In this document: positions 23,287 to 54,145 of the stretch, in pieces
Layout of the letters: each line of letters starts with the position of its first letter
Numbering within the stretch: position 1 is the stretch's first letter
Virus record (IMG/VR): IMGVR_UViG_3300027733_000033
DNA from: a virus
Direction: 5' to 3' (one strand)
DNA length: 64,000 nt
The notes under the pieces: generated by a model
What the model was told of the DNA's origin: nothing
Database searches by the model: none
What the model saw: the letters and a program-made list of their open reading frames with translations, nothing else
Made by a program: the position numbers and the translations under genes

Positions 23287-23360
23287 GCCACTCGCGGAAC
23301 GTCAATTCCCAGTAGCGCTAATCATTCTAAAGATAATTTAAGGAAATTACTATGACCAGT
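23287..23360 (+). promoter_or_regulatory. Conserved two-hairpin leader RNA (copy 1 of 4)
   Basis: GCCACT-CGC-GGAA-cgtcaa-TTCC-C-AGTAGC, then CT-AA-TCAT...ATGA-CC-AG. Confidence 0.75.
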
Positions 23361-24044
23361 ACAAATATATGCGTAACAGAAAAACTTTTTGCGATAAGTG
23401 AAAATAAATTATACATGGATAGATACATAAAATTTATTAATCATTATGAGTCTATGCAATACACAATAAGTGGATATTTTGAATATCATCACATATTACC
23501 TAAATCATTATTTCCAGAATTCAAAATATCAAATTTTAATTTAATTAAACTTCCATACAGAGCACATTTTATTGCACATTATTTGTTGGCTAAAGCAACA
23601 AATAATTACAAAATGATTTCAGCATTTAACGGCATGTGCAATCAGAATAAACAAAAACATCAACGGTCATTATCTGTGCTATATGCTGCGGCTAAAAAGA
23701 TGTTTTCAGAAAGTCAACGCGGTTCTTCCAATATAGGTTATGGGATGGTATCTGCGTGGAATAAACAACTTAATGCACGAGTGCGTGTAACAAAAGAACA
23801 ATTTTATTCAAATAAAGAAATTTATGGTGGTGTAACTTGTAAAGAAGCTTTACAATGGAAAACTATACACGAAAATTATATACAGAAACCTCAATCAGAA
23901 TACCAAAGAATGCGTGCATCTGAAACAAGTTTAAACACAGCTTCAGCAAAATTAGTGTCAACCGGAGAATCTTTAGGTCGAATTTCTAAAAATGATATTA
24001 GATGGTCAACTGGAGAAATTGTAAGTGCCAATAAAAAATGTTAA
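23352..24044 (+). CDS. Free-standing HNH homing endonuclease
   Basis: EYHHILPKSLF...NLIKL..RAHFIAHYLL; antisense to the flanking operon. Confidence 0.85.
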   Translation: MTSTNICVTEKLFAISENKLYMDRYIKFINHYESMQYTISGYFEYHHILPKSLFPEFKISNFNLIKLPYRAHFIAHYLLAKATNNYKMISAFNGMCNQNKQKHQRSLSVLYAAAKKMFSESQRGSSNIGYGMVSAWNKQLNARVRVTKEQFYSNKEIYGGVTCKEALQWKTIHENYIQKPQSEYQRMRASETSLNTASAKLVSTGESLGRISKNDIRWSTGEIVSANKKC

Positions 24045-24076
24045 GTGTGTATGAAATATGTTATTATATTTAGGCT

Positions 24077-25417
24077 TTATTGTATAATAATATACAACGC
24101 GCTTGTAGATGTTATTTTTTTAGAAGAGAAATAGCAAAATTTCATATTTTCTTCAAAGTCTTGCTCTGTTTTTGGTAAAACCAAAAAGCTGTAAAGGAAA
24201 GAGATTAAATTGATGAATCTATTTTTGGTTAATGGTGTTCCAGAATCTATTATAGACAACGCATCAGCATAACTATGGATTGTATTTGACAGTCTAGGAT
24301 ACTTATTAAACAATTCCTGTAGTTCATGTTTAGCCGTTTCATAAGCCGCCGCGCTAACCTTACCATTTCTTAAGGAATAGTTAAATTTCTTTTTAATATG
24401 AGCTGGGTAATCTTTAGCATCAACAGCGCCTAACTGGAAACCTGCTCCATTAAATCTTGATTCTAATGAAACGTTTAACGTAGATGCTGATGCTTTAAAT
24501 CCACATCTAACAAGGAATCCAGAATTTGTATAAATTATGAAGTTGGCAAAGGTATCAGATAAATCAACTTTGCTAAATTTAAAGTCGTATTCCAATTTTG
24601 AGTTCAACAACTCATTTGGATCAGTAACACTTAACTTGGCAGAATCTTTTGTAATTTGTTTCAACGAAATAGGAATAACATTTCTTTCCTGAAACGCTAC
24701 CGCTAAATTGGTATTTAGTTCTTCAATACTATCCACGTTATAGACTGCGTGTAAATTAAAGCCGGCTTTAATCATCCATACGTCAGCTGGGTTCCAATTA
24801 TCGTTAGCTTTCTTAGATAATTTTCTGGCTGTAGCGTATAGATCTTTTGTGTATTTACCAGACTGTCTTTCGTAGGTGTAACCGCCCATGTGAAGGAATT
24901 TTTTCAATTCAAAAGTTTGCTTCAAAGCGCTTGAGTAATATAACGGGCTGTACAAATCTACAAACTTAGCATCTAATTTACCTACCACATCGTCTTCAGA
25001 TAAAATTTTATTATCTTCTATAGCAGACTCAAACATATACATACTGATTAATTCTTTCAATTCAGTCAATAAGTTTGTGTTACTTTTGGCATTTTTGCTG
25101 TAGTGATTGAATAGGGTATTTAGTGATGACGCGCTACCGGTAACGAGTAAAATTTTGTTTGTAGCATCTTGTAAGGCAATTTGGTCTGTACCAGAATTTA
25201 TCTGTAAAATGTTATCTGGTGTTTTATCTTTATCTGCTATTTTAAAAATACTTTTTCCTGGCACGTATCCAATGTTTGTGAATTGGCTTGCCATTTTCCC
25301 ACTTAGTTTATCTTTTAAAACTAATTCATGACCTGTACCGTATTTCGTTGCAGCACCTACTATGGTGGCTTCTAATAATGAATCTAGACCAGATCTAAAA
25401 TCTTTAAATGTTAACAT
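24077..25417 (-). CDS. PD-(D/E)XK restriction-like nuclease with capsid-targeting-like N-terminus
   Basis: MLTFKDFR...LLE; KE...WNPADVW...ISLKQ; ACTAAATA late-type promoter at about 25441-25448. Confidence 0.6.
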   Translation of the reverse strand: MLTFKDFRSGLDSLLEATIVGAATKYGTGHELVLKDKLSGKMASQFTNIGYVPGKSIFKIADKDKTPDNILQINSGTDQIALQDATNKILLVTGSASSLNTLFNHYSKNAKSNTNLLTELKELISMYMFESAIEDNKILSEDDVVGKLDAKFVDLYSPLYYSSALKQTFELKKFLHMGGYTYERQSGKYTKDLYATARKLSKKANDNWNPADVWMIKAGFNLHAVYNVDSIEELNTNLAVAFQERNVIPISLKQITKDSAKLSVTDPNELLNSKLEYDFKFSKVDLSDTFANFIIYTNSGFLVRCGFKASASTLNVSLESRFNGAGFQLGAVDAKDYPAHIKKKFNYSLRNGKVSAAAYETAKHELQELFNKYPRLSNTIHSYADALSIIDSGTPLTKNRFINLISFLYSFLVLPKTEQDFEENMKFCYFSSKKITSTSALYIIIQ

Positions 25418-25505
25418 AAAATCTCCTATTTTGATACTATTATTTAGTGAATTTCAGGCGTAAAAAAGCCGGCTTAATAGCCGGCAGACTTCGGAGAGTA
25501 ATGAA

Positions 25506-25994
25506 TTAAATCATAGCAACAACAGCGTTAAATTTAGCTACAGATTCAACGATAGCTTCTTGAACGGTTAATCTTAATTCTGGTTTCAATAAATCTAAAA
25601 ACGATAACACTTTTTCAGCGGTATCAACGTTAACATTAACGCGATCGTTGTTTAAAAACACAACTTGGTAATTACCTTCAGTGTCAATAGTTTTGTACAA
25701 TTGGGTACGGATATTTGATTCAAACTCAACATCGTTAGTTTCGATATCGTTATCAGCTAAGTCAACGACAGACACATTAGGAATAGCGTAGATACCAGTA
25801 GATATTCTATTATCACGTTGCCATTTCCATAAAAACGATGGAGCACCTTTAACGCCGAAATATGCGTTAGTCAATTCAAAGTCAGTTTTAGTTAAACCAG
25901 AAACGCCTTTTGGCGAACGGTTATAAAAGGCAACTGCAACGCCTAAGTATTCGTCAGGAGTAAATTTAGCTTTAGAAGAAGTTTGGTTAGTCAT
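25506..25994 (-). CDS. Hypothetical early protein (true start MTNQ)
   Basis: GGAG RBS; the upstream MKLNLN is part of the promoter repeat. Confidence 0.7.
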   Translation of the reverse strand: MTNQTSSKAKFTPDEYLGVAVAFYNRSPKGVSGLTKTDFELTNAYFGVKGAPSFLWKWQRDNRISTGIYAIPNVSVVDLADNDIETNDVEFESNIRTQLYKTIDTEGNYQVVFLNNDRVNVNVDTAEKVLSFLDLLKPELRLTVQEAIVESVAKFNAVVAMI

Positions 25995-26097
25995 TTTATA
26001 CGCTCCGGATAATTCATTAAGGTTTAACTTCATTACGATCTATTATACTATGTTTTTTGTAAAAGTAAAGCTTTTTTTATCTTTTTTAAAAATAATT

Positions 26098-26433
26098 TTA
26101 CTCAACATTGTGTTTTAAGAAGTGGTTGATATCAGAGTAATACTTAATATCTTCTCTATCCCATGAACCGGCTTGGTAACTATCGGCATACTGTAATCTT
26201 TGCTCAGCGTTTGCTTGGCGTTCAATATAATGTTCTTTACCATAAAAGCCGTATGCAACCTGTAATAAAGTGTAGGAAATATCTTCTGATACTGAATAGG
26301 TATATTCGACCAACTTTCTAATTGCTTTATGTTCAGGGTTGAATTGGTTTTTTATAACTTCTTCAGCAGGTGTTGCTTTAAACTCAGCTGCGATTAAAGC
26401 CACTACTTCAGTCAATTTAATTTTATTAGTCAT
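26098..26433 (-). CDS. Hypothetical protein
   Basis: ORF; its leader (TCCGGAGCGTATAAAATGACTAA) is identical to that of the 25994 gene. Confidence 0.65.
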   Translation of the reverse strand: MTNKIKLTEVVALIAAEFKATPAEEVIKNQFNPEHKAIRKLVEYTYSVSEDISYTLLQVAYGFYGKEHYIERQANAEQRLQYADSYQAGSWDREDIKYYSDINHFLKHNVE

Positions 26434-26489
26434 TTTATACGCTCCGGATAGTTTATTAAGTATGAGTTATTATAATTGATTGGTGCGAA

Positions 26490-26702
26490 TTAATCAAGCA
26501 CTTTTTTAACAACAGGAACTGTCATCCAACCCATAGGTTTTCCGCTGAACGTTTCGCCTACATAAATTTGTCCTACTCTTAAACCGTCTGAATCTAGCAA
26601 TTCCCAGCAAGGACCAGCTTTGCGCAACTTTAGAACTAATTCGTGGTTTTCGCCAGCAGCCATCCATTTGTCTAGATTTGTAAATTGTTTTAATTTATAC
26701 AT
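26490..26702 (-). CDS. Hypothetical early protein
   Basis: ORF behind a class-1 cassette. Confidence 0.6.
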   Translation of the reverse strand: MYKLKQFTNLDKWMAAGENHELVLKLRKAGPCWELLDSDGLRVGQIYVGETFSGKPMGWMTVPVVKKVLD

Positions 26703-26839
26703 TTTCAACTCCAATTTAATTACGGTTTAACTTCATTAGACTCTATTATACTAGAATTTTATCAAAAGTAAAGCTTTTTTTAATTATTTTTAAAATTATT
26801 TTTAGGCGCAAAATAGCCGGCACAAAGCCGGCTAATTCA

Positions 26840-27379
26840 TCACGCAAATTTACTATTAATGAAGTTTAAAATCTTTTCTTGGTCAGAGAAGTTTTCATTT
26901 TTGAATTCAGTAATTAAATCCATATAGTCAAAGTTGCCTAGGATATTGCTAATCTTAGTATCCTTAGACTTTAAAAACTGCTCGGGTTGGTTACTACCGC
27001 GTTCATCATATCGACTTTGCAAGGTAGCCTTATCAGCAGAAATAACCAAAATATCAAATTGAGTATTAGGTAAGCTAGAAAAGAAGTCGTACGACTTCTG
27101 ACCGGTAAGCCTATCACCCTCAAACATAATATTCACATCAGTTTGTTTTGCCCAATTGATAACCTCTGGCAGAGTAGCCATACTGAGGCGGTCTGTGCCG
27201 GCAAATACTTCACCTTCGTCATACTTTCCTAGGATATGTAAATTCAAATCTTTACAATATTCTGACGAAACAAGTTTAGCTTCTTCGCGCCGCTCCCAAG
27301 TATAGTTTTTCATAAACTCACGAAACAAAGTAGTTTTACCGGTTCCAGGGACACCACAAACAGCAATAATTTTTCTCAT
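26840..27379 (-). CDS. P-loop nucleotide kinase (base-modification-associated type)
   Basis: GVPGTGKTT; LGKY...FAGTDRLSM; FEGDRL. Confidence 0.8.
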   Translation of the reverse strand: MRKIIAVCGVPGTGKTTLFREFMKNYTWERREEAKLVSSEYCKDLNLHILGKYDEGEVFAGTDRLSMATLPEVINWAKQTDVNIMFEGDRLTGQKSYDFFSSLPNTQFDILVISADKATLQSRYDERGSNQPEQFLKSKDTKISNILGNFDYMDLITEFKNENFSDQEKILNFINSKFA

Positions 27380-27756
27380 AATTCAGCTCTCACGTTTTCT
27401 TTTTCAGTAGGGGAATCTATAGCAATAACATGTACTTTTTTACAGTAATTTTTTAAGGTTTCTATTTGAATAGGATCGTCCTCAAAATGAAACTGAATAT
27501 CATAACCAGACTCGATCAGCATTTCGATAGTTTTAGCCTTATGTAAACCAGAACTAACGCGAGTTTTTTCATGATATCGAATAGGATTAAAGAAGACTTG
27601 ATTATAAATACCGCGCTGATGTAACATAGTTAGCGTTGCCCGCGTTTCTTCTATAGATCTACCGGTTATAATAATATCATCTGGGTCAGGTCTAACACCG
27701 CGCAACCCTTTGCCCATATAAATAACGCCATCAATATCAAAAGTGTTAATTTGCAT
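27376..27756 (-). CDS. Capless HAD-family phosphatase
   Basis: FDIDGV, ITGRS, K, FEDD. Confidence 0.85.
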   Translation of the reverse strand: MQINTFDIDGVIYMGKGLRGVRPDPDDIIITGRSIEETRATLTMLHQRGIYNQVFFNPIRYHEKTRVSSGLHKAKTIEMLIESGYDIQFHFEDDPIQIETLKNYCKKVHVIAIDSPTEKENVRAEL

Positions 27757-27804
27757 TCATAATACCCTAAAGTTAATTTTACTATTCAATTATAACTTAA
27801 TTAT

Positions 27805-29067: not shown

Positions 29068-29070
29068 AGT

Positions 29071-30363: not shown

Positions 30364-30404
30364 TTGTTTTTCCTAAATAAAAATAATATTATAAATGATT
30401 TTCT

Positions 30405-35235: not shown

Positions 35236-36315
35236 TTAGATTTCAGTATCGATATCTTCTAATTCATCAATAATTTCTTCATCTGTAGCAGTATTATATG
35301 CAGCACCAAGCTGGAACCTTTCTTTAATGAAAGTTTTAAACTTACCATTGCTCAATATATCATTCCAAAATGCATCAGTTTGAGTTTCTTTTGCGCGGTA
35401 TTTCTTTTCAGCCAATTCGCCAGTATCTAAATTGACCTTTTGGTACCAACCATTAGATGGTTTAATGATAGCGCCGGATTCTAACCCTAACTCAAGTAAA
35501 CCTGAAAACTTTTGTATACCACCAGCATAAGTTACTGTGAACACAAGTTTAGATTTTTCTCTCACATATCTAGACTTTTCAACGTTCAACGTAAAATTAT
35601 AACCCACTAAATCTGTTCCATCTTTTTCTTGAGATTTTCCGATAATAAATGCAGTGTTAGCAGAATATATCAAACCAGACCCACCACTGATAATTTGCTT
35701 AGGGTATAACGACATTTCAGAATATGTATGACAGATAGTTATGCACGGAATGTCTTTAGCAACTAAAGAAGGAGTAACCATACGGAACAACCCTTTAATA
35801 GATTTTGCTCTTTGCATTTCAGCAACACTTTTTTCACTCAAAGCATCATCTAATTCTTTTAAACTAGCAGTATTTCCTATAGAATCAATCATTATAATTA
35901 CTTTATCGCCACGCTCTAATTCTTTTAACTGTTTAACCATATCAAACTTTAACATCTCAATATGTTCAATTGGAATATGGACGACCCTGTCAGGGTCTAC
36001 GTCCATAGAACGCAGGTAATCTGGAGTAACACCGCCCTCTGAATCATAAAATATACATACTGCGTCTTTATACTTTCTAAAATACGCGCTAATACAAACT
36101 AATGCAGTTGCTGATTTAAAAGATTTACTTGGACCAGCTAACAAGGTTAAACCGCTGCTTAACCCACCATCAACATCACCTGAAAATGCTATATTAACGA
36201 TAGGAATATCTGTAGGGATAACATCTTTGTCTTTAAACATTACTGAATCAGTCAAAACAGCAGTGTGTTTAGTTGTACTATTTTTAAGAATTTTACTCAT
36301 CAACGGCGATTTCAT
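35236..36315 (-). CDS. uvsX: RecA-like recombinase
   Basis: AGPSKSFKS, FYDSE, IDSIGN, MQRAK, SGGSG, KSRYVREK. Confidence 0.95.
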   Translation of the reverse strand: MKSPLMSKILKNSTTKHTAVLTDSVMFKDKDVIPTDIPIVNIAFSGDVDGGLSSGLTLLAGPSKSFKSATALVCISAYFRKYKDAVCIFYDSEGGVTPDYLRSMDVDPDRVVHIPIEHIEMLKFDMVKQLKELERGDKVIIMIDSIGNTASLKELDDALSEKSVAEMQRAKSIKGLFRMVTPSLVAKDIPCITICHTYSEMSLYPKQIISGGSGLIYSANTAFIIGKSQEKDGTDLVGYNFTLNVEKSRYVREKSKLVFTVTYAGGIQKFSGLLELGLESGAIIKPSNGWYQKVNLDTGELAEKKYRAKETQTDAFWNDILSNGKFKTFIKERFQLGAAYNTATDEEIIDELEDIDTEI

Positions 36316-37082
36316 TTTGTTTCCTTTTTATGGTTTCCAGCAAAACTTTGCATTACTTGATTTAACTTCTTTTCACTCATTAACATACCACGAACCCACC
36401 CGTCTCCTGGAGAAATGTTAGCTTTAGTGTTAATTGTGCCATTATTCCACCAAAACATTTTACCAGTAACCTTCCCACCTTGTTTCCCACCTTTAGAAGC
36501 ATTGATCAATGCTTCTTCTGGATTAGCTTCTCGCCATTCTTTAGTGACACATCCACCAAAATTGCCAGATTCAATTAACGCATTAGCGCCTATAATTGCC
36601 CATTCATTTCTTAAATGCTGTAAATTTGGGTTATGTATGCCTTTTTGTTTATCTCTACACGCAGAACCAGCAATTTTTCCAATTTCTGAAAAATCAATAT
36701 GATCCATTGAGCCGTTAGACCAATTAAACTTAGTTTGAGCAGATCTATCATAATCAGCAGCAAATATACCAAGATTATTATCCTTTGTAATTCTTCCGCC
36801 TATTTTACCAGCATTAGAATATAATAATAAAATATCTTTATCTGTTAATTTTACAGCAATTCCACGCATAAAACAATACGCAAGTTTATTTCCGATAGGT
36901 TTACCCATTTTGTATCTTAATAAATGGACAATCCTGTGTTCTTTAAATGTTAAAACTGCGCACAAATAAGAATTTGGGTCTTCATGTTTAGGTGTAATAT
37001 GATGATTGTGGTGAATTGAAGAATCATAAATTCTTCCTATTGAACGCGATATAATATCGTCTTGAAGTTTTTCGTAATTCAT
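36312..37082 (-). CDS. Free-standing HNH homing endonuclease
   Basis: HNHHITPKH...LTFKEHRIVHLL; GKxGG repeats; C-terminal WWNNG...GWVRG. Confidence 0.8.
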   Translation of the reverse strand: MNYEKLQDDIISRSIGRIYDSSIHHNHHITPKHEDPNSYLCAVLTFKEHRIVHLLRYKMGKPIGNKLAYCFMRGIAVKLTDKDILLLYSNAGKIGGRITKDNNLGIFAADYDRSAQTKFNWSNGSMDHIDFSEIGKIAGSACRDKQKGIHNPNLQHLRNEWAIIGANALIESGNFGGCVTKEWREANPEEALINASKGGKQGGKVTGKMFWWNNGTINTKANISPGDGWVRGMLMSEKKLNQVMQSFAGNHKKETK

Positions 37083-41662: not shown

Positions 41663-41667
41663 AGTGT

Positions 41668-42063: not shown

Positions 42064-42260
42064 AATTTACACTCCAATTTAACTAAAGATAACTTCATTA
42101 CGATCTATTATACCTTAAATGACTCAAAAGTAAAGCTTTATTTTAAGGCTTAATGATATTTTTAAGCGCTTAACCTCAATTCACGCCCGACTAGGCTATT
42201 ATACGTGTTTGGGTGTATAAAGTAAAGTTTTATTTTTACTAAATATTTTGTACAAAAAAA

Positions 42261-42333
42261 GCCACTCGCGGGATTGCAGTCCCCAGTGGCACTAATCATC
42301 CTAACATTAATTACGAGAACTAACATGACCAGC
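42261..42333 (+). promoter_or_regulatory. Conserved two-hairpin leader RNA (copy 2)
   Basis: GCCACT-CGC-GGGA-ttgcag-TCCC-C-AGTGGC; CT-AA-TCAT...ATGA-CC-AG; CTAAATA upstream. Confidence 0.78.
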
Positions 42334-43022
42334 ACAAGTATTTATACTCCCATCACACCCACCTATCTGTACATCAAACAACACTCCATCACAAAAAAGA
42401 AATACTTCGGTAAGACCACTAGAGACCCATACACATACAACGGCTCAGGGGTTTATTGGACCAATCACATCAAGAAACACAGCAAAGAACACATCGTAAC
42501 TTTATGGGTTTCTGAGTTGTATTATGACACGTCAATTGTAGAAGTAGCCTTAAAGTTTTCTTCAGATAACGACATAGTCAAATCTAAAGAATGGGCAAAT
42601 ACGGAACCAGAAAACGGGTTAAATGGATGCCCTCCTGGCACAAAACGTTCAGAAGAAGCTAAGATTAATATGCGTAAGCCTAGATCAGAAGAAGCTAAGG
42701 TTAATATGCGTAAATCAGAAGAAACTAAAGCCAAAATGCGTAGACCTCGTTCAGAAAAAGCTAAGGCTAATATGAAAGGCAGAGCTCCAAATAAAGGTAA
42801 ATCCACATCACAAGAAACTAAAGACAAAATGTCTGCTAATATGACAGGCAAAAAACGTGGTCCATATAAAAAATCAAGTAAACCTAGAAACCCACGCTCA
42901 GATAAAGGTAAACCTAGAAAACAAGTCACATGTCCACATTGCGGTAAACTGGAGGTGAAAATGGAATGAAAAGATGGCATTTTGATAAATGTAAAGCAGA
43001 AACATCAGTCTCTTTATTTTAA
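42325..43022 (+). CDS. GIY-YIG homing endonuclease with NUMOD3-like repeats; frameshift in the C-terminal zinc finger
   Basis: YLYIK...KKYFGKT...YNGSG; SEEAK repeats. One added A near 42948 restores CPHCGKTGGENGMKRWHFDKCK (the track stops at 42969). Confidence 0.85.
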
Positions 43023-43061: not shown

Positions 43062-44648
43062 ATGGATTTAAATAATACTGGATACAACGGCAACCGAAAT
43101 TTAAAGCAGGTTGGGTTACCAATTGAGTTCACCGCAGAGCGACTCGAAGAATACATTAAATGTAAAAACGATCCTGTCTACTTCATAATAACATACTGTA
43201 AGGTTGTTTCGTTAGACAGAGGATTTGTTAATTTTGATTTGTATGAATACCAAGAAAGATTCATTAACGCTATTCATACAAATAGAAAGGTCGCTGGAAT
43301 GTTTAGTCGCCAGCAGGGTAAAACAACAACATCTGCTGCTTACATATTACATTACGTTACATTTAACGACCATAAAACGGTTGCGATTTTGGCTAATAAA
43401 AGCGCCGCCGCCCGTGAAGTTATGAGCAGAATACAGCTCATGTTTGAAGCCTTACCTATATGGCTTCAACAGGGAATTAAGACTTGGAATAAAGGTGACA
43501 TTGAATTAGAAAACGGATCTAAGATTTTCACATCTGCTACGACAGGATCTGGTATTCGTGGTAAATCTGTTAACATGTTATACATTGATGAGATTTCATC
43601 AATTGCTAATACGATTGCTGAAGAGTTTTTCACGTCAACTTACCCCGTTATTTCTTCTGGTAAAGATACTAAAATTTTGATGACGTCAACCCCAATTGGT
43701 TATAACTATTGGTGGAAAGTATGGAACGAAGCTGAAAATGGAATAAATGGCTTTTTACCCTTTAAGGCAGAATGGCACGAACATCCTGAACGTGATGAAA
43801 AGTGGGCAGCTGAACAAAAGGCGTTTCTTGGTGAAGTTAAATTTAATCAAGAAGTATTATGCCATTTCCTCGGTTCTGCGAACACATTAATTGATGCAAC
43901 GACACTAGGATCATTATCTCCTAAGCCGTTTGTGTACTCAACGCAAGACGGCTTAGACATCCTAGAAAAGCCTACACCAAACCATTTTTACGCTTTAGTC
44001 GCAGACACCTCTGAGGGAGTCGGTGGGGACTTCTCAGCGTTTGTTCTAATTGATATTACCGTTTATCCGTTTAAATTGGTAGCTAAGTATAAAAACAATA
44101 AGATTAGTCCTATGTTATATCCTAACGTAATACACAAAGTTGCTTTAGAATATAACAACGCCTATGTTTTGATTGAGATTAATAAATCTCAAGAAGTCGC
44201 TATGATATTGTATGATGAATACGAATACGAGAATATGATATCAGTTAAACGAGGAACAAAGGGACAAGTGCCAGTTGATGGTGGATACAGCAAAGGTTTA
44301 TTAGGCGTTACCACTGATAAAAAAGTTAAACGTCAGGGATGTCAAGCCTTAAAATCTTTGATGGAAGAAAAGAAACTACTGGTTTTTGATACAGACGTTA
44401 TCGGTGAATTCACTACCTTTATCGAGAAAAATGGCTCGTTTGCCGGCGATTCTGGTGCTCATGATGATTTGGTGATGTGTTTAGTATTATTTGGATGGTT
44501 AACATCAAGTGAATATTTTAAAGATATGACTAATATGGATACAAGAAAAGAATTATATTCTGCGCATATGGATATGATTGAATCATCTATGCTACCTGTT
44601 GGATGGTTAGTTGATGGCACAGAACAACCGCAATATGTAAATTTTTAG
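43062..44648 (+). CDS. 17: Terminase large subunit (T4 gp17)
   Basis: LYEYQ, SRQQGKTT, ILANK, RGKS...YIDE, TSTP.G, VADTSEG...DFS, HDDLVM. Confidence 0.97.
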   Translation: MDLNNTGYNGNRNLKQVGLPIEFTAERLEEYIKCKNDPVYFIITYCKVVSLDRGFVNFDLYEYQERFINAIHTNRKVAGMFSRQQGKTTTSAAYILHYVTFNDHKTVAILANKSAAAREVMSRIQLMFEALPIWLQQGIKTWNKGDIELENGSKIFTSATTGSGIRGKSVNMLYIDEISSIANTIAEEFFTSTYPVISSGKDTKILMTSTPIGYNYWWKVWNEAENGINGFLPFKAEWHEHPERDEKWAAEQKAFLGEVKFNQEVLCHFLGSANTLIDATTLGSLSPKPFVYSTQDGLDILEKPTPNHFYALVADTSEGVGGDFSAFVLIDITVYPFKLVAKYKNNKISPMLYPNVIHKVALEYNNAYVLIEINKSQEVAMILYDEYEYENMISVKRGTKGQVPVDGGYSKGLLGVTTDKKVKRQGCQALKSLMEEKKLLVFDTDVIGEFTTFIEKNGSFAGDSGAHDDLVMCLVLFGWLTSSEYFKDMTNMDTRKELYSAHMDMIESSMLPVGWLVDGTEQPQYVNF

Positions 44649-44655
44649 GAAAAAT

Positions 44656-45492: not shown

Positions 45493-45514
45493 GAAACCGA
45501 ATTTTAGGAAAAAT

Positions 45515-46975: not shown

Positions 46976-46980
46976 TAATA

Positions 46981-47013
46981 TGACGCCCAGTTCCTATTTG
47001 GTTCTGGGCGTCA
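46981..47013. terminator. GC-rich hairpin after the 45515 gene
   Basis: TGACGCCCAG...CTGGGCGTCA; no strong U-tract. Confidence 0.55.
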
Positions 47014-47078
47014 AAATATTAATCGTTCAATATCAATACAACCGTCTAAAATTAAAATTTACTAAATAATTATATAGT

Positions 47079-47148
47079 AAGATTCGCGATATTACCAGTA
47101 TCCAATCTTTCTAATACTTTGATTTTAATGGAGGAAGTACCAGCTATG
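47079..47148 (+). promoter_or_regulatory. Conserved two-hairpin leader RNA (copy 3, most divergent)
   Basis: AAGATT-CGC-GATA-ttaccag-TATC-C-AATCTT; CT-AA-TACTT...AAGTA-CC-AG; ACTAAATA upstream. Confidence 0.72.
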
Positions 47149-48618
47149 AATATTTATACGATTTTAAGTTCAATGAAACATAATAAACTTCAATTAAACA
47201 GATATTTAAAGTTTATTGATTGGTGTTCAAAAACAAATATTAACGGCGTTGAATTTGCACATTTGCACCATATATGTCCTAAATCTATGTTTCCTATGTA
47301 TTCAAATTTAACTACAAATAAATGGAATGGAATAAAGTTAACACATAGACAACATTACATTGCTCATTTAATGTTAACTAAAGTTTACCCAAAATCTATA
47401 AAAATGACAAGGGCATTTATATGTATGAACGCTAGTAGTCCACAATTCATAAAAATACATTCAAAATGTTATGCTAGTAATGTAGCAAAATTAAATGGGA
47501 AAGTTATAGCAAAAAATAAAATCACCGGAAAATATGAACACATCACATCTGAAGAATACGCTAAAGGTAATCATACGCATAATAGCGTAGGTATGGTAAC
47601 TGCAATTGATGCTGCTGGAAATATTATAAAGGTGACATCAGAAAAATTCAATTCTACAGAAAATTTAAAGGGTGTAAAAGCCAATACCGTTTCTGTTATA
47701 TTTAAAGATAACAGCACTGGGCATGTAACAAAAGAACAATTTGATTCTAATGATGAATTAGTTGGTGTGTTAAATGGAAAAGTATATGCAAAAAATAATG
47801 AATCAGGAAATTATGAATGGATAACTCCAGAAATATATTCTAAAGGCGATTATACACATTTTAATAAAGGTTTGATCACTGGTAAAAATAAAATCACCGG
47901 TGATGTCGAAAGAATAACTTCTGAAGAATACGCTAAAGGCAATCATACGCATAATAGCGTAGGTATGGTAGCTATATCATTAAATGATGGAACATACGCT
48001 AAAGTTACAAAGGAAGAATTTAATAAAGGCGGCTATAAAGGAGTAAATAGTGGTTATGTTATAGCAAAAAATAAAATCACCGGTGAATCTAAAAGGATAA
48101 CTTCTGAAGAATATTTTTTGAATTGTGACTATACCACACACCATTCAGGAACAGTTATAGCAAAAAATAAAATCACCGGTGATGTCGAAAGAATAACTTC
48201 TGAAGAATACGCTAAAGGCAATCATACACACAGCACAACAGGAACAGTTACAGCAAAAAATAAAATCACCGGTGATGTCGAAAGAATAACTTCTGAAGAA
48301 TACGCTAAAGGCAATCATACACATGATAATAAAAATATGGTCACTGTAGTATTAAATGATGGAACATACGCTAAAGTTACAAAGGAAGAATTTAATAAAG
48401 GCGGCTATAAAGGAGTAAATAGTGGAAAATGTTCTGTTCGTTCTATACACAAAATAGGCTCATATAGAATACCCTGTGGGACACTAAAAGATTACGAAGT
48501 GACCGTATATAAAAAAATTGTTTATGTTCATAATAGTTCAACTAATGAAGAAAAAATTTTATCTAAAAATGAATTCGTTGATGAAAAATGGAAACTGGGA
48601 AAACTAGAAAAAAATTAA
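47146..48618 (+). CDS. HNH endonuclease with about 10 tandem repeats of about 31 aa
   Basis: HLHHICPKSMF...LTHRQHYIAHLML; repeats such as GxVxAKNKITGDVERITSEEYAKGNHTH. Confidence 0.85.
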   Translation: MNIYTILSSMKHNKLQLNRYLKFIDWCSKTNINGVEFAHLHHICPKSMFPMYSNLTTNKWNGIKLTHRQHYIAHLMLTKVYPKSIKMTRAFICMNASSPQFIKIHSKCYASNVAKLNGKVIAKNKITGKYEHITSEEYAKGNHTHNSVGMVTAIDAAGNIIKVTSEKFNSTENLKGVKANTVSVIFKDNSTGHVTKEQFDSNDELVGVLNGKVYAKNNESGNYEWITPEIYSKGDYTHFNKGLITGKNKITGDVERITSEEYAKGNHTHNSVGMVAISLNDGTYAKVTKEEFNKGGYKGVNSGYVIAKNKITGESKRITSEEYFLNCDYTTHHSGTVIAKNKITGDVERITSEEYAKGNHTHSTTGTVTAKNKITGDVERITSEEYAKGNHTHDNKNMVTVVLNDGTYAKVTKEEFNKGGYKGVNSGKCSVRSIHKIGSYRIPCGTLKDYEVTVYKKIVYVHNSSTNEEKILSKNEFVDEKWKLGKLEKN

Positions 48619-48682
48619 AATTTATGATTGTTTGAATTTTATAAATTGGGTGCATGCCTTAATAAACATTGCACCCAATTTT

Positions 48683-50398
48683 TTATTTATTGTGGATAAT
48701 CACAGAAAAATCATTTTGTTTTTCTACTTGTATAACATCGTCAAACATATCTTTGACGTGTTCATCGTGAGATATAATAAATACACTAATCCCTATTTGC
48801 GATTTCAACACACCTATTAATGAAGTAGAACCTTCTCCATCTAAAGAACCAGAAAATATCTCATCTAATATTAAAAGATTCGTATTAGCAGAATTCTTAA
48901 GTTTAGCAATTTCTCTCCAAGCAAATAAAAGCGCTAAATCAATTCTAGATTTTTCACCCTCAGAAAAATTATCATATGTCATTGTATCTCTATATCTTGA
49001 TTTGATAACCTCGTTAAATTGCTCATCTAAGTTAAAGTCACAATAGAAATCCATAACAGCAAGATATTTGTTAATTAAGGTATTCATCAGTGGTAAATAC
49101 TCACGAATGATAGCCGTTTTAATACCGCCGTCTTTCAGCAATAATACCCCTACATCTTCAACACCCTTTTGCTCAACCAATATCTTTTTGCGGTTTATTA
49201 GCCTAATAGCTTCTTCAACCAAATCTTTAAGTGTATTTTTCTCAGCTTCGATATTTTGAGTCGAGTTAACAGATTCCAATAAAGATTGGTTGAGTTTTGT
49301 TATCCTGGACTCAATCACATTTATTTCAGATTGTAAACCTCTAACATCATTTCTAGCTGTAACAATATCTTTCTCAGTTTCGATTATCCCAGCTAACCTT
49401 TTTTCCTGTTCTTGGTATTCCGTTCCAGACTGAATAAACAAATCATTCATATCCTTTTTACTAGATTCTAAATCGCTTAATACGCCGCCGGAATGTGTAT
49501 GTGGAATATTTTGCTGACAGGAAGGACAGCTTGCGTTTTCATTAAAGAACACAATCGATTTATCTAAGGTATCAATCTCATGCTTAACCTTTCTCATTGT
49601 ATTGTTAAGACTTTTAAGTTTAGCATTAACCGCATCTTTTTCTAAAACTGAAGGAGTTAACCCATCAATTATAGCTTGAGCCGCCGCTATTTTTGCCTGC
49701 CGATTTTCTACTGTAGTTGTATCTTCTTTGATATTCGCTTTAATAGCATCAATTTCAGACTGCTTATTGACTTCTAAATGTGCTATAATTCTTTGCTGCG
49801 ATTCAACCTTATTTTTAGCAATTTTTAATGCCGATTCAATATAGGTCAGTTCTTCTTTAGTTTTAGATAGCCGCTCTTTTAATAGTTGATTCATTATAGA
49901 AAAGATACGAATATCCAGAATATCTTCAATAATCTCTCTACGCTGACTTGAACCCATTTTCATAAACGGTGTAAACGTGGCTGAACCAAGAATAACGACC
50001 TGTGTAAACGTTTTCATATTCATCTTAAGAATCTGTTGCTCTAAAACAACCTGATAATCCTTAACAGCAGAATCTTGATTGATTAGTTCATCATTACGAT
50101 AAATCTCAAAGGTGTTAGGCTTAATGCCACGAACAACTTTATAGTAAGCGCCGCCCTCCTCAAATTCAATCTCAACGACACAATTTTTCTTATTAATACT
50201 ATTAACCAAACCGCCCTTACTGATGTTTCTAAATGGTTTACCGAATAGAGCAAAGGTTAAAGCACAAAGTACAGAACTCTTGCCATTTCCATTACCGCCT
50301 ACGATTAATGTTTGCTTGCCGGTATCTAATCTAATTTCATTAAATTGGTTGCCGGTTGATAAGAAGTTTCTCCATCTTATTGTCTTAAAATTAAGCAT
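48683..50398 (-). CDS. 46: Recombination endonuclease ATPase subunit (T4 gp46, SbcC/Rad50-like)
   Basis: GGNGNGKS, CPSCQQ hook, FSEGEK, ILDE, ISH. Confidence 0.97.
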   Translation of the reverse strand: MLNFKTIRWRNFLSTGNQFNEIRLDTGKQTLIVGGNGNGKSSVLCALTFALFGKPFRNISKGGLVNSINKKNCVVEIEFEEGGAYYKVVRGIKPNTFEIYRNDELINQDSAVKDYQVVLEQQILKMNMKTFTQVVILGSATFTPFMKMGSSQRREIIEDILDIRIFSIMNQLLKERLSKTKEELTYIESALKIAKNKVESQQRIIAHLEVNKQSEIDAIKANIKEDTTTVENRQAKIAAAQAIIDGLTPSVLEKDAVNAKLKSLNNTMRKVKHEIDTLDKSIVFFNENASCPSCQQNIPHTHSGGVLSDLESSKKDMNDLFIQSGTEYQEQEKRLAGIIETEKDIVTARNDVRGLQSEINVIESRITKLNQSLLESVNSTQNIEAEKNTLKDLVEEAIRLINRKKILVEQKGVEDVGVLLLKDGGIKTAIIREYLPLMNTLINKYLAVMDFYCDFNLDEQFNEVIKSRYRDTMTYDNFSEGEKSRIDLALLFAWREIAKLKNSANTNLLILDEIFSGSLDGEGSTSLIGVLKSQIGISVFIISHDEHVKDMFDDVIQVEKQNDFSVIIHNK

Positions 50399-50406
50399 CT
50401 TATCCC

Positions 50407-51462
50407 CTATGTCAACGAAACATTAACAGCTTCTAAAAACAAACTATTCATCAAATTCTTCACGCTTTCTTTATCCATATCTGTATCAACATTATCGATG
50501 TAATCTGATAGTATTTGTTTAGTGTCAGCTAGGTCAATCTTTTCGTCGATATTACCGTTAGAAAACTCAGACATATCCTCGATAATTTTAATGTCATAAC
50601 AGCCGGCGCTATATAGCCGTTTCAAAAAATTATCATATCCAAATAAATCGTTTTTGTTCACGATAATCAATTTGACATATTTCTCGGTTAGAGTTGACAC
50701 GTCAAATTTAGAGTAATCTGTAACCGTATCATCATATTCAAGTTTCTCAAATATGGTATAAGGATTTTGAATAAACTGAGTTTCACCGGTATCAGTATCG
50801 AATATCCAAAAACCTTTAGGGTCATTGAAGTCAGACCATGTAGTATCATATGGAGTTCCGGTATAAAGGATATTCCCTTTTACTGATTTTGTATGATAGT
50901 GCCCTGATACAACCAATTTATACCTACCATACATATCAACAGGATACCCGTCGTGAGCATCAACTCCTTTATACATTTGAAAGCCGGTAAACCCAAAATG
51001 TCCTACGCAATAATCAGATTTTGAGTTAGATACAAAGGAAGCAACTTCAGCCTTATTATCGTTACACACCCATGGGATAAAATCAATTTTTAAGCCGGCA
51101 AATTCTACTGCTGTTGGTTCATCAAAAATATACACATTTGAATACTCATTAAGCAATAGTGCTGTTGAGTTAACCTGAAGAGATTCTCTATAATAAATAT
51201 CATGATTTCCTAATAAGGTATAGAAAGTCATATTGTTAGCTTTCATTGGGTCAAATATAACCCGTTTGGCTTCATATAAAGATAACAGGTTTATTGCTTT
51301 TCTGCTATCAAATAAGTCACCAAGTTGGATAATCGTGGTTATATTATGTTCTTTAAGGTAAGGGAAAAACACATTTGAAAAGAATTTTTCAGAATGTTTA
51401 TGGAAGTTTGTAGAGTTATTTCTAACGCCTACGTGAACGTCACCAAGCCAGCATATTTTCAT
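50407..51462 (-). CDS. 47: Recombination endonuclease nuclease subunit (T4 gp47, SbcD/Mre11-like)
   Basis: GDVH, GDLFD, GNHD, GH, SGHYH. Confidence 0.96.
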   Translation of the reverse strand: MKICWLGDVHVGVRNNSTNFHKHSEKFFSNVFFPYLKEHNITTIIQLGDLFDSRKAINLLSLYEAKRVIFDPMKANNMTFYTLLGNHDIYYRESLQVNSTALLLNEYSNVYIFDEPTAVEFAGLKIDFIPWVCNDNKAEVASFVSNSKSDYCVGHFGFTGFQMYKGVDAHDGYPVDMYGRYKLVVSGHYHTKSVKGNILYTGTPYDTTWSDFNDPKGFWIFDTDTGETQFIQNPYTIFEKLEYDDTVTDYSKFDVSTLTEKYVKLIIVNKNDLFGYDNFLKRLYSAGCYDIKIIEDMSEFSNGNIDEKIDLADTKQILSDYIDNVDTDMDKESVKNLMNSLFLEAVNVSLT

Positions 51463-51471
51463 AATATCCTT

Positions 51472-52065
51472 TTAGCCAATTAAATTTTCTGGTTCATTAA
51501 TGTCATCGACAACATCAAATAAGTCAATATCTGATTCCATAAATTTAGATAATTCATTAATGTGTTCACGTTTTAATTTTGGTTTTTTCTCATAATATTT
51601 TGAATAATCTGATTTTTGTAAGGAATTCAAATATTCAAGATATTCGTTTACAACTTCTTTATTATCGTGTTCTTGGCTGGAATATTTTTCCACATTAATA
51701 TTTTTTGCCATTTCGCTTCTAGTATAGGCTTGGTCGCGTTCTTTTACGATTGTGGCAAGAAAAGAATAGTAGCAACACTGTGAAAAATACGAAAATGGGT
51801 TTTGTGTTCTTTCAGGGTCAAACGTATCAAAATATCTTATACAGTTTACTATGGCGTCTTGTATCATTTCATCTTTATACGAACGCCCGTAATATAGCGG
51901 TCTTTTAGCAAAATTGGTGGCAATATCAGTTATACATTTTCCAAGGTAATCATTAATCTTTGGTTTAGGTAAACCCTTTTCTTCGGCTTCTTTTAATGCG
52001 GCTTTCCTTTTGACAATTTCTTCATAAAATTTTACATTGTCTACATAATTATTTCTTGCTGTCAT
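51472..52065 (-). CDS. 55: Late-transcription sigma factor (T4 gp55)
   Basis: NYVDN, YLGKCI..IA, DEMIQDA, FDPE...NPFSYF. Confidence 0.93.
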   Translation of the reverse strand: MTARNNYVDNVKFYEEIVKRKAALKEAEEKGLPKPKINDYLGKCITDIATNFAKRPLYYGRSYKDEMIQDAIVNCIRYFDTFDPERTQNPFSYFSQCCYYSFLATIVKERDQAYTRSEMAKNINVEKYSSQEHDNKEVVNEYLEYLNSLQKSDYSKYYEKKPKLKREHINELSKFMESDIDLFDVVDDINEPENLIG

Positions 52066-52568
52066 AATGTTCCTTCACAAATTGTTAAAATATCAGTCAT
52101 AATTCTAGCTTGCGTCGCGTTAATTTTTCTATTTTCAAATATGAATTTCATCATATCTATGGTATCTTCAACATAAGAAGGTTTAGGCGCATCGCTAATA
52201 TTGGATAATCTATCCAACAATTTTAAGGTCAAACCGTAGCTTGACATTCCCACCATTTTATTTTTCAAATAAACAACTTTTCCAACCCGCTTAATTTCTT
52301 TATTGTCAGAAGTCAATTCCTCGACAAGACTGGCAACGAAAGAACCAAACAACGAAGTTATTTCAGATAACGTGGTATCAGTATCTTCAATTGTATCATG
52401 TAGCAAACAAGCTACCTTTAGTTCGTCCATACGTTTTGAAGTTTTATATTTTGGTAATAACCCCGCAACATAAATAGGGTGAGATATATAAGGATTTCCG
52501 GTCACCTTTCTAACTTGCCCAAAATGTTTAGTAGTAGCAAATTCTAAAGCCATTTCAACGATACACAT
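52062..52568 (-). CDS. HD-domain (p)ppGpp hydrolase-like protein (SpoT/Mesh1 type)
   Basis: H.GQ.RK...PYISHP, LLHDTIEDT, LVEELT, KLLDRLSN. Confidence 0.85.
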   Translation of the reverse strand: MCIVEMALEFATTKHFGQVRKVTGNPYISHPIYVAGLLPKYKTSKRMDELKVACLLHDTIEDTDTTLSEITSLFGSFVASLVEELTSDNKEIKRVGKVVYLKNKMVGMSSYGLTLKLLDRLSNISDAPKPSYVEDTIDMMKFIFENRKINATQARIMTDILTICEGTL

Positions 52569-52828
52569 TTTAACCTCCAAATTTTAATTTCACCTAATTA
52601 TACCGTATGCAAATGTAAAAGTAAAGCTTTTTTTAAAATTATTTTTAATAAAAAAGCCAGCTTGTTAGGCTGGCTTTGGTGAGTTAAAACGGCTCGACTA
52701 ATGTTAAACGACAAACATCAATAGTATCTATTGTCAAATCCTCATAAACAATGACAACTTTTACTGATCCTGAACACAATAACGGCTCATCTGAGGATTT
52801 GGCATACGCCTTTTTCCCAATTAAGGTG

Positions 52829-53248
52829 TTAGCCATCGATAGTTTTACCGGCTTGAAGATCTTTTAAAGTTAACCCGTTTGTGAACTGAATATGCGCTAG
52901 TTCTTTAAACTTAACCCAATCACCCGCCCATTCAAATCCTACTTCTTTAGCAATATGACCGGCTTTAGTAAACGCCGCCGTGTCTGCCCATTGAGCCTTA
53001 CCATTAACAATAGGAACAAAGTCCAGCGCTAATCTATAATTATGCCAAGATTGACCAGCTTTAGCATTAGTGACTTTTTTACCCGCTGTGGTTCTACCTT
53101 GTGCATATAAGGCGTTTTGGCTTTCATTATCACGATATGTTGATGTAACCAAAATATCTAATCCATGTTCTTTACACTTTGCTAAAAACTTTTCAGCCAT
53201 TGCTTTAACTTTTGGATGTAAGTCATTAAGGTCTCTGCTATTAATCAT
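52829..53248 (-). CDS. Endolysin, M15 L-Ala-D-Glu peptidase
   Basis: YR...QNALYAQGRT, SWHNYRLALD, WAGDW...ELAHIQ. Confidence 0.9.
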   Translation of the reverse strand: MINSRDLNDLHPKVKAMAEKFLAKCKEHGLDILVTSTYRDNESQNALYAQGRTTAGKKVTNAKAGQSWHNYRLALDFVPIVNGKAQWADTAAFTKAGHIAKEVGFEWAGDWVKFKELAHIQFTNGLTLKDLQAGKTIDG

Positions 53249-53258
53249 AATTTATTTC

Positions 53259-53720
53259 CTATTTTCTAATGTATTTATTATACCCAGCTACCCAATCAGT
53301 AGCAAACATATCTTGGGCGACTTTCAAGTTAAGTGTACCTTTACAAACCGCACTATGTGCCCATGCTTCTAACACATCTTTTTTAGCCGCGTGATTCACA
53401 CCATATCTAGGCTCTGGCCAAAGGTTAGCTGGGTCAGAAGTCGCGCCACCTACCGATAATGGAATAAGATGGTCTTCCTCGTAATGCTTAGGGTCTTTAT
53501 CAACATACCCATATTCTTTAATTTGTTTCAACTTCAGATTATTAGTATAATAAGAAGAAGGTCGAATTGTAGCAGTATAATTAGGAACACAAATAGTTGA
53601 CTTAATATTACCCGTTGTGACGTTTGGATTTAACGCGCCGGCGGTTAATTTAGCGTTTGGTAAACCATCAGCCCAGGCAAGTGACGGCAGCAATAATGCA
53701 ACTAATAATAGTTTTTTCAT
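53259..53720 (-). CDS. Secreted HNH-like protein
   Basis: Signal peptide MKKLLLVALLLPSLAWA; YEEDHLIPLSVGG...NLWPE...KD.LE. Confidence 0.7.
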   Translation of the reverse strand: MKKLLLVALLLPSLAWADGLPNAKLTAGALNPNVTTGNIKSTICVPNYTATIRPSSYYTNNLKLKQIKEYGYVDKDPKHYEEDHLIPLSVGGATSDPANLWPEPRYGVNHAAKKDVLEAWAHSAVCKGTLNLKVAQDMFATDWVAGYNKYIRK

Positions 53721-53971
53721 TTATTTGCGCCTGCTAATAATGTATAAGTTTTGTGCTGAACTGGGATAGTTTTAGCGTTTGACCACGTACTAATACGTTC
53801 TGGTGTTTCTTTTATATCTGCCAATTCTTTAATGATAGTTTGGAGCACTTCAATTTGACGCTCGAGGATTATATTTTGACGTTTTGCATTATCAAATTTA
53901 ACATGCAAATTAGCGACATCATTTTCTAAATCTCTAATTCTTTCGCTTTTATTTTTACCAAACATTCCCAT
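53717..53971 (-). CDS. Hypothetical coiled-coil protein
   Basis: ORF behind a class-1 cassette. Confidence 0.6.
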   Translation of the reverse strand: MGMFGKNKSERIRDLENDVANLHVKFDNAKRQNIILERQIEVLQTIIKELADIKETPERISTWSNAKTIPVQHKTYTLLAGANK

Positions 53972-54068
53972 TATAATTCTCCCAATAATTTAACTTCATT
54001 AAACTCTATTATATCTATTTTTATAAAAAGTAAAGCTTTATTTTTACTAAATATTTTGTACAAAAAAA

Positions 54069-54145
54069 GCCACTCGCGATGTTACCAGCATCCAGTAGCA
54101 CTAATCATTCCAATGACAATTTAAGGTAAAACTATCATGACCAGC
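54069..54145 (+). promoter_or_regulatory. Conserved two-hairpin leader RNA (copy 4)
   Basis: GCCACT-CGC-GATG-ttaccag-CATC-C-AGTAGC; CT-AA-TCAT...ATGA-CC-AG; CTAAATA upstream. Confidence 0.78.

Follow-up and report, generated by a model that had tools for sequence, protein, structure and literature searches.

Large lytic phages carry homing endonucleases as their main selfish elements, and only a few T4 cases, which use ad hoc hairpins, show how these avoid doing harm. Within the T4 family, such hairpins have been described for I-TevI, I-TevII, I-TevIII, segB, and mobE of Aeh1 (reviewed in PMC2988022). A study of "fractured genes" in marine metagenomes (Dassa et al. 2009, PMC2677866) reports hairpins in 15 of 16 endonuclease 5' untranslated regions (UTRs), ten of them with TATAAATA, as well as two complementary motifs that pair in a stem and are common to different endonuclease families. 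Also described are an antisense RNA of cyanophage S-PM2, CfrI (Millard et al. 2010, as summarised in PMC2984593), and the promoter-terminator cassettes of T4-like phages known as PeSLs (Arbiol et al. 2010, PMC2839356; Comeau et al. 2014, PMC4122927). Here, we describe a two-hairpin element found in 64,000 nucleotides of viral DNA (IMG/VR record IMGVR_UViG_3300027733_000033; this whole stretch is referred to as the window) and in related phages, where it forms a structured, covarying, and portable module common to unrelated nucleases. We directly observed its structure and covariation, the positions of its promoter-like boxes, an asymmetry between its two strands, the orientations of the surrounding genes, and one empty insertion site available for comparison. 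Tentatively, and with confidence somewhat short of even, we read the element as a bidirectional 5' boundary module of free-standing homing-endonuclease cassettes, in which an antisense transcript or terminator would restrain the nuclease and insulate its neighbors.

A covariance model built from 34 copies (R1) gave exactly four strong matches over the 64-kb window, at 54.8-70.8 bits, with a runner-up at 13.9 bits. These are the same four copies that an initial annotation of the window had located, at 23287-23359 (c1), 42261-42332 (c2), 47079-47143 (c3), and 54069-54144 (c4), and all four stand before nuclease genes. Upstream of hairpin 1, each copy has a TAAATA box like that of a late promoter, at 20 nt in c1, 15 nt in c2, 10 nt in c3, and 15 nt in c4, so that the range is 10-20 nt rather than the 15-25 nt first given. 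Hairpin 1 folds in all four copies, and its inner stems covary (GGAA/TTCC, GGGA/TCCC, GATA/TATC, and GATG/CATC in order). The outer stem likewise covaries between GCCACT/AGTGGC and AAGATT/AATCTT, as annotated, but c1 and c4 in fact have GCCACT/AGTAGC with one C.A mismatch each. Similarly, the "CGC/C internal loop" of the annotation is invariant but is really a G-C pair with a bulged C on each side. Hairpin 2 (CTAAT..A[C/T]CAG), which had been proposed to bury the start codon or ribosome-binding site (RBS), is present in all four copies but drops out of the minimum-energy nuclease-strand folds of c2 and c4. Folding of the opposite strand instead gave hairpin 2 as a clean helix of 8-9 bp in every window copy.

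Further copies were collected in IMG/VR by three rounds of pattern scanning and subsequent model searches, which together yielded 56 distinct copies in contigs of uncultured T4-like and jumbo phages, with up to 10 per genome. Three of the copy-bearing contigs are near-complete jumbo genomes of 327-360 kb, and the window phage is itself T4-like, with a terminase ~47% identical to the terminases of cyanophages and phage Cr30. Across the family, the parts follow in the same order: an (N)ATAAATA late box, hairpin 1, a single base, hairpin 2, the start codon, and an inverted TATTTA 6-8 nt past hairpin 2. Hairpin 1 is composed of a 6-bp outer stem, the G-C pair between two bulged C residues, and an inner stem of 4-6 bp, and hairpin 2 is a CUA..CAG helix with the Shine-Dalgarno sequence (SD) in its loop. 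The covariation first noticed among four copies held up on the alignment of the covariance model, in which 93.5% of cells were paired vs. 74.5% in shuffles. Two-sided changes occurred at 8 of the 11 hairpin 1 pairs and 5 of the 7 hairpin 2 pairs (13 of 18 in total).

The same pairing emerged when copies were chosen blind to their stems. A stem-agnostic pattern had 101 distinct matches in IMG/VR, and 14 of these were picked on context alone. All 14 had four of four free outer pairs, and 13 had at least three further inner pairs, vs. a mean of 1.78 of four free outer pairs in the remaining 87 matches. This indicates that the pairing exceeds chance and is not an artifact of selection.

Nearly every copy of the element precedes a nuclease gene, and these genes represent at least five or six families. 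The kinds downstream were Seg-like and classical GIY-YIG, Mob-like and I-HmuI-like HNH, endonuclease VII-like, resolvase-like, and zinc-finger, along with a few unknowns, and proteins of the relatives matched PHROG 3339, 559, 1035, 15137, and 1271. Among the downstream proteins as a whole, the PHROG matches fell in homing, HNH, endonuclease VII, and other endonuclease families. Within the window, the c1 and c3 proteins matched the PHROG homing/HNH families 655 and 12434, and the c2 and c4 proteins matched PHROG 314, consistent with the two HNH and two GIY-YIG genes of the initial annotation. However, neither the Pfam GIY-YIG nor the Pfam HNH model reached significance for any of the window's four proteins, and the GIY-YIG label of c2 and c4 therefore rests on the PHROG annotation together with a Seg-like YLY..YFGKT motif found in both. 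The Pfam domain NUMOD3 was above threshold in c4 and below it in c2 (16.0 bits, E 0.012). A sequence search of the PDB with the c1 and c4 proteins returned no match. The proposal that the module is portable across unrelated nucleases, and more complex than the simple RBS-sequestering hairpins of T4, was thus borne out by the wider family of two-hairpin, covarying copies. By contrast, the invariant bases are identical across unrelated nucleases, which makes autoregulation by the nucleases, offered earlier as one possible function, unlikely.

The start codon takes one of two positions relative to hairpin 2. Type A proteins start M-x-I-Y, with the AUG one base past CAGC and the SD spacer within a hairpin 2 arm. 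Type B proteins start M-T-S-x-x-I-Y, with the AUG within the 3' arm AUGACCAGC; c1, c2, and c4 are of this type, and they are the three that had been correctly noted to begin MTST(N/S/T)I. Type B copies have an ACA codon where type A has its AUG, which means that MTST is an N-terminal extension translated from the 3' arm of hairpin 2. Among newly fetched copies listed from the three jumbo-phage contigs, 16 of 16 stood before an open reading frame (ORF) of the MxIY type, one of which reads MIFS. One of these contigs (G002 in IMG/VR, 359,890 bp) contained ten copies (L158, L162, L164, L166, and L168-L173), each before a nuclease ORF of this type. The first two, L158 and L162, have an identical hairpin 1 and different hairpin 2, which suggests exchange inside the module. 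Decayed copies were also seen: L077:11197-11280 has an intact hairpin 1 but has lost hairpin 2 and the SD by deletion relative to its relative L148, and L021:2887-2955 has kept hairpin 1 and lost the nuclease start.

In agreement with the initial annotation, the element matched no named RNA family. Rfam 15 gave no match for either strand: none reached gathering score across the whole window, and its E-value mode returned only chance-level hits for c4 and the type A copy L158 (≤16 bits against cut-offs of 36-63). A search with R1 found no copy in T4, Aeh1, S-PM2, Cr30, or S-CREM1 (best E 0.38; S-PM2 E 0.94), and BLAST of the c4 module and of a 5-kb query against GenBank phages gave no match. 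A 3.8-kb query from elsewhere in the window had a single BLAST match among GenBank phages, at 65.6% to the myo-inositol-1-phosphate synthase gene of Ralstonia phage RP13. Likeness to a ribozyme, a tRNA, or an anticodon loop, considered by eye, was dropped, as neither the length nor the sequence of the loops is constant and the ribozyme models of Rfam gave no match.

The inverted box is a second conserved feature, and the initial annotation, which recognized the two hairpins, overlooked both this box in the first codons and the antisense placement of the genes. TATTTA occurred 6-8 nt past hairpin 2 in 42 of 56 copies, compared to 6% of ordinary gene starts. It was kept in at least three codon registers (NNT ATT TAY; TAT TTA; ATA TTT A), and the second codon after the nuclease start varies in meaning but ends in T. 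This retention across registers indicates a signal at the nucleotide level and ruled out a protein-level cause for the shared xIY; rather, the MxIY and MTSTxIY N-termini are shared because the inverted box lies in the first codons. Read on the opposite strand, the box is TAAATA, commonly (T/A)ATAAATA, which resembles the forward box and equals the T4 late-promoter consensus. The forward and inverted boxes can form a 6-7-bp helix (P0, TAAATA::TATTTA) in read-through RNA of either strand, but their flanks are not complementary to each other. A long P0 helix was therefore ruled out, as only this core pairs and the flanks do not covary.

The initial annotation took the RNA to be on the plus strand, the strand of the nuclease genes. 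When the stems were read on the nuclease strand, however, they contained 101 A.C or C.A cells vs. only 10 G.U, and 8 of those 10 were at the loop-closing pair. One A.C pair of hairpin 2 is near-invariant (53 of 56 copies) and is joined by a second in type B copies, and in hairpin 1 eight sporadic A.C cells stand against one G.U. Because each such A.C cell becomes a G.U wobble when the complementary strand is read, this imbalance favors an RNA from the opposite strand. Fold energy was lower on the opposite strand in 55 of 56 copies, with a mean of -19.3 vs. -13.2 kcal/mol. On that strand, at least five U residues fell within 8 nt after hairpin 1 (there called hairpin 1') in 50 of 56 copies, with a run of seven (U7) in c2 and c4, and this U-richness persisted in copies whose forward TAAATA has decayed. 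Taken together, the mismatch asymmetry, the fold energy, the U-rich tail, and the gene context described below favor the opposite strand at least as much as the nuclease strand.

The mismatch pattern also bears on a very unlikely alternative, in which the hairpins would act in single-stranded DNA or as a recognition site (TCGCG..CC core) for a recombination, replication, or modification protein, for example as a site extruded at opposed promoters. The element does hold an invariant CGCG-containing core inside otherwise free stems, and G.T is the most tolerated mismatch in DNA hairpins too. Yet no enzyme candidate is tied to the module, homing requires no structured site, and the positions of the SD, AUG, promoter boxes, and U-tract are all explained by signals at the RNA level.

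Strand asymmetry weighs more directly on a sense-only leader, a serious rival, if a less probable one than our preferred reading, in which the hairpins act solely in the late mRNA of the nuclease. Hairpin 1, at the 5' end, would stabilize that mRNA or bind a common phage or host protein via its bulged CGC, and hairpin 2 would throttle initiation through the SD spacer or the AUG. TATTTA would pair with the forward TAAATA only in read-through RNA and thereby shut off translation initiation, in the manner of the late-only switch of I-TevI, e, and soc in T4. Several observations fit this account. The element lies between the late box and the SD/AUG in all copies, and the forward box is 3-5 nt 5' of the stem in 34 of 56, where a late transcript would start at the hairpin. 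In type B, the AUG falls within the 3' arm of hairpin 2, and P0 formed in 27 of 40 minimum-energy folds of sense read-through RNA. Control of this kind is also established among the nucleases of T4 (PMC2988022), and PMC2677866 reports comparable hairpins that contain TATAAATA upstream of metagenomic endonuclease genes. Still, the stems on this strand show A.C rather than G.U, and hairpin 2 is so weak there that the sense folds of c2 and c4 lack it. All arms of both hairpins lie 3' of the late start, which makes the classical T4 switch inapplicable to them. Moreover, upstream genes are mostly on the other strand, so that sense read-through transcripts should be rare, and P0, with its noncovarying flanks, amounts to just 6-7 A-U pairs in many copies.

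The genes around the element are mostly oriented against the nuclease. The upstream neighbor was on the opposite strand in 36 of 48 cases (c1, c2, and c4 included) and the downstream neighbor in 26 of 35, often with overlapping 3' ends. At the c1 locus, the nuclease gene (23352..24044, +; Mob-like HNH, PHROG 655 and 12434, N-terminus MTSTNI) is antisense to minus-strand genes on both flanks (22103-23248 and 24077-25417). Here, the forward late-promoter core TAAATA (23261..23266, +) is followed by hairpin 1 (23287..23316, +; GCCACT CGC GGAA CGTCAA TTCC C AGTAGC, with one outer C.A mismatch), after which the minus strand continues with UUUUAUAAAUUUUU, and by hairpin 2 (23318..23359, +; CTAATCAT .. 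ATGACCAG), whose 3' arm contains the start codon at 23352-23354. The corresponding site is empty in the relative L185 (860-955), where a native terminator, which has a U6 tail, and a ACTAAATA late promoter lie between the flanking genes. In the window (23200-24140), the HNH cassette is inserted backwards in this same intergenic gap, and in L183 (20-1010) the gap is occupied, again backwards, by another nuclease (PHROG 3339) whose copy of the element has diverged. The first residues of the neighboring protein differ among L185, L183, and the c1 locus, as expected from co-conversion.

At the c2 locus, the conserved sequence extends further upstream. A 43-nt block (42218..42260, +), which contains ACTAAATA (TAAATA at 42240-42245) and an A7 run, precedes hairpin 1 and is common to c4 and five IMG/VR relatives; homology between copies of this subfamily begins at this distance, 43 nt 5' of hairpin 1. 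Hairpin 1 (42261..42290, +; GCCACT CGC GGGA TTGCAG TCCC C AGTGGC) is directly followed on the minus strand by U7, and the pair reads as an intrinsic terminator in its sequence features. The minus strand of the block runs from U7 through an AT-rich stretch to TTTACT, which is part of an early-type promoter candidate, TTTACT-17-TATAAT (42226-42198, -), that follows hairpin 1' and U7. By eye, TATAAT lies 15-17 nt past TTTACT in five of the seven subfamily members. The -35 element of this promoter falls within the block conserved between cassettes, and the spacer is different in every copy. From its sequence, then, the c2/c4 minus-strand arrangement is a putative terminator and then an early-type promoter facing the neighboring gene. 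No sigma-70-type arrangement was seen in the family outside this subfamily, where the boxes are of the late type. Hairpin 2 of c2 (42292..42332, +; CTAATCAT .. ATGACCAG, ATG at 42325-42327) has two A.C mismatches on the plus strand that are two G.U pairs on the minus strand. Its inverted box (42339..42346, -) is TATTTATA on the plus strand. In the minus-strand direction it matches TATAAATA perfectly and precedes hairpin 2 as read that way (hairpin 2') by 6 nt, and it is the predicted start of an antisense RNA of ~80 nt that would end at the U7 run (~42254). The nuclease gene (42325..42969, +; Seg-like, PHROG 314, weak NUMOD3, N-terminus MTSTSIY) is immediately 5' of the terminase large subunit gene (43062-44648, gp17-like), where divergent gene blocks meet.

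These two loci could also be taken to mean that the module is a PeSL-like promoter-terminator junction that mainly serves the flanking opposite-strand phage genes and provides a recombination handle for nuclease swaps, with any effect on the nuclease being secondary. It would end transcripts that cross the antisense nuclease gene and supply or precede the promoter of the next gene. We consider this explanation unlikely. To its credit, hairpin 1' and the U-tract replace the native terminator at the c1 locus, the c2 minus strand has U7 followed by TTTACT-17-TATAAT, with TATAAT kept in the five subfamily members noted above, and most flanking genes run opposite to the nuclease. The module, together with the first four codons, is common to unrelated nucleases, and PeSLs are tested terminator-plus-promoter cassettes in T4-like phages (PMC2839356). 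However, covariation reflects selection on structure, whereas recombination needs sequence identity, and this account has no role for hairpin 2', which is conserved to the same degree as hairpin 1. The module was seen only with nuclease genes and not at other gene junctions, and most promoter boxes in the family are of the late rather than the sigma-70 type. In addition, a neighboring gene ~25 nt away would be blocked by a terminator.

The c3 and c4 loci show the range of variation in the window. In c3, the forward TAAATA (47063..47068, +) is 10 nt 5' of hairpin 1, and the element (47079..47143, +) consists of hairpin 1 (AAGATT CGC GATA TTACCAG TATC C AATCTT), a T, and hairpin 2 (CTAATACTT .. 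AAGTACCAG) with GGAGG in its loop. The inverted box (47151..47158, -), TATTTATA on the plus strand and TATAAATA on the minus strand, is within codons 2-5 of the nuclease gene (47146..48618, +; Mob-like HNH, PHROG 655 and 12434, N-terminus MNIY). Its 490-aa protein ends in a long C-terminal array of near-identical units (KNKITG..ERITSEEYAKGNHTH and KNKITG[D/E]VERITSEEYAKGNHTH..), presumably a repeated DNA-binding module, which is unusual in a Mob-like nuclease. A split of the Rad50-like gene beside c3 was ruled out, as the upstream ORF is its SbcD/gp47 partner. In c4, the conserved 43-nt block (54026..54068, +; ACTAAATA with TAAATA at 54048-54053, and the A7 run) precedes an element (54069..54144, +) composed of hairpin 1 (GCCACT CGC GATG TTACCAG CATC C AGTAGC), an A, and hairpin 2 (CTAATCAT .. 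ATGACCAG), with the ATG at 54137-54139 within the hairpin 2 unit. The inverted box is degenerate (TATATATA, 54151-54158), and the nuclease gene (54137..54802, +; Seg-like with NUMOD3, PHROG 314, N-terminus MTSTTIY) is in antisense placement, flanked on both sides by minus-strand genes. The window also has a fifth nuclease-like gene (36312-37082, -), MobE-like HNH, which starts MNYEKLQDDIISR, has a weak PHROG 655 match, and is co-oriented with its neighbors. Both the two-hairpin element and an upstream TAAATA box are absent from this gene, indicating that some nucleases of the window phage do without the module.

In the bidirectional reading that we prefer, the two strands would carry different signals. 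On the nuclease strand, a late mRNA would start at or just before hairpin 1, and hairpin 2 would hold the SD spacer (type A) or the AUG (type B), although only weakly because of the conserved A.C mismatches in its helix. On the opposite strand, where A.C becomes G.U, the hairpins are more stable, and they start 6-8 nt past the inverted late box. An antisense transcript would stop at hairpin 1' and its U-rich tract, and its source could be either the inverted late promoter, giving an RNA of ~60-85 nt, or read-through from an oppositely oriented flanking phage gene. This RNA would pair with the nuclease leader, stem-loop to stem-loop, such that translation of a potentially harmful nuclease stays low. 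Hairpin 1' would at the same time restore a terminator before the neighboring gene that was displaced by the cassette, and in the c2/c4 subfamily the restored terminator would be followed by an outward-facing early-type promoter. The firing of both boxes, termination at hairpin 1', and pairing of sense with antisense RNA are what we infer here. A more specific proposal, which strikes us as possible rather than probable, is that the element is a dedicated portable antisense-RNA cassette. Face-to-face T4-type late promoters 80-95 bp apart would read the same hairpins in opposite directions, and the nuclease would thereby bring its own short repressor RNA, which would also terminate and insulate transcription of the phage genes that the backward cassette has interrupted.

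A number of observations weigh against the antisense and terminator parts of this reading. Base composition accounts for 3.35 of the 6.13 kcal/mol strand difference in fold energy, or over half. The mismatch count in hairpin 1 is small (8 vs. 1), and the copies are not all phylogenetically independent. As for the conserved A.C mismatch, selection could instead have favored it as a means of weakening the sense hairpin. The U-rich tract of many type A copies begins 2-4 nt past the stem and is interrupted, suggesting that termination may be weak, and a simple terminator scan did not call hairpin 1', because its stem is bulged. Nor does a terminator or an antisense RNA have an obvious need for the invariant bulged CGC. 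Fourteen of the 56 copies, c1 and c4 among them, have either a degenerate inverted box or none. Finally, roughly one copy in four is co-oriented with its neighbors and yet keeps all features, and at some loci the neighboring gene begins just ~25 nt past the module, which leaves no space for its own promoter and would make an efficient terminator there harmful.

If an antisense or terminator function is real, it would explain how essential phage operons can harbor a backward nuclease cassette at little cost. Phage biology would also gain a new RNA family, along with a sequence signature by which free-standing nuclease cassettes, and the points where they begin and end, could be recognized in metagenomes. 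Were the dedicated antisense cassette to prove correct, free-standing homing endonucleases of different families would for the first time have a conserved RNA family linked to them, with a repressor analogous to a type I antitoxin or a plasmid copy-control RNA. The module is also a compact natural example of overlapping signals on two strands, in which the promoter box on one is the putative terminator tail on the other. In contrast to the T4 cases, it is a shared and evolvable module with strong covariation, at least five or six unrelated nuclease families, and up to ten copies per genome.

Classical cis-antisense regions such as R1 CopA/CopT, ColE1 RNAI/RNAII, and hok/sok offer the nearest general parallel. 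They have opposed promoters, a bulged stem-loop antisense RNA with a terminator hairpin, and a target leader made of the mirror-image stem-loops that includes the RBS, and they are experimentally shown systems. The present case differs in being inferred from sequence, in that both promoters would be of the T4 late type, and in having a nuclease gene of a lytic phage as its target.

The hairpins of the T4 family (PMC2988022) resemble the module in that a hairpin involving the SD or AUG lies beside a TATAAATA late promoter and keeps the nuclease low or late. However, each of those genes has a lone, stable hairpin of its own design, and late RNA escapes it because the late start falls within the structure. 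The module instead has two hairpins with invariant bulges, is family-wide across unrelated nucleases, and has both hairpins 3' of the late start, an SD hairpin that is weak on the sense strand, and a second, inverted box. The late promoter is accordingly outside any inhibitory structure, with only the weak P0 helix as a candidate. The gene is not in an early or middle unit running from upstream on the same strand, as the upstream neighbor is opposite in 36 of 48 cases. The third feature of the T4 switch, a sequestered SD or AUG, may have a counterpart in the AUG in the 3' arm of c1, c2, and c4 and the SD spacer in an arm of type A copies, but the sense helix has one or two A.C mismatches and is missing from the minimum-energy folds of c2 and c4.

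The metagenomic elements of Dassa et al. (PMC2677866) come like the present module from T4-like loci, although the endonucleases there are between the halves of split-intein genes. A covariance model, a two-hairpin architecture, an inverted box, and strand asymmetry do not feature in that study. By their description, these hairpins may be the same or a related element, and this prior report weakens the novelty of ours in part. CfrI of S-PM2, as summarised in the review (PMC2984593), overlaps a homing-endonuclease gene with which it is co-expressed and is thus a precedent for antisense RNA at a phage nuclease gene. It is described there as ~225 nt long and as linking psbA to the endonuclease gene, whereas the antisense RNA considered here is a predicted one of 60-85 nt confined to the leader.

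PeSLs share with the module a small, repeated, and portable combination of a promoter and a stem-loop terminator, and they are proposed to permit harmless insertion and module shuffling. The minus strand of c2 and c4 is PeSL-like in its series of stem-loop, U7, AT-rich stretch, TTTACT, and TATAAT. By contrast, PeSLs are sequence-conserved cassettes that flank ORFans and have early promoters of the sigma-70 type and stems of the form GGGG..CCCC, whereas the module has mostly late boxes and two covarying bulged hairpins and accompanies nuclease genes only. Rather than a conserved sequence at many intergenic sites flanking ORFans, we found stems that diverge with compensation. Regulatory hairpins beside the late promoters of phage nucleases were thus already known. 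What is new is a defined, covarying two-hairpin family that spreads over nuclease families and jumbo phages, together with its inverted box, the antisense bias in its folding and mismatches, and the backward orientation of the cassettes that carry it.

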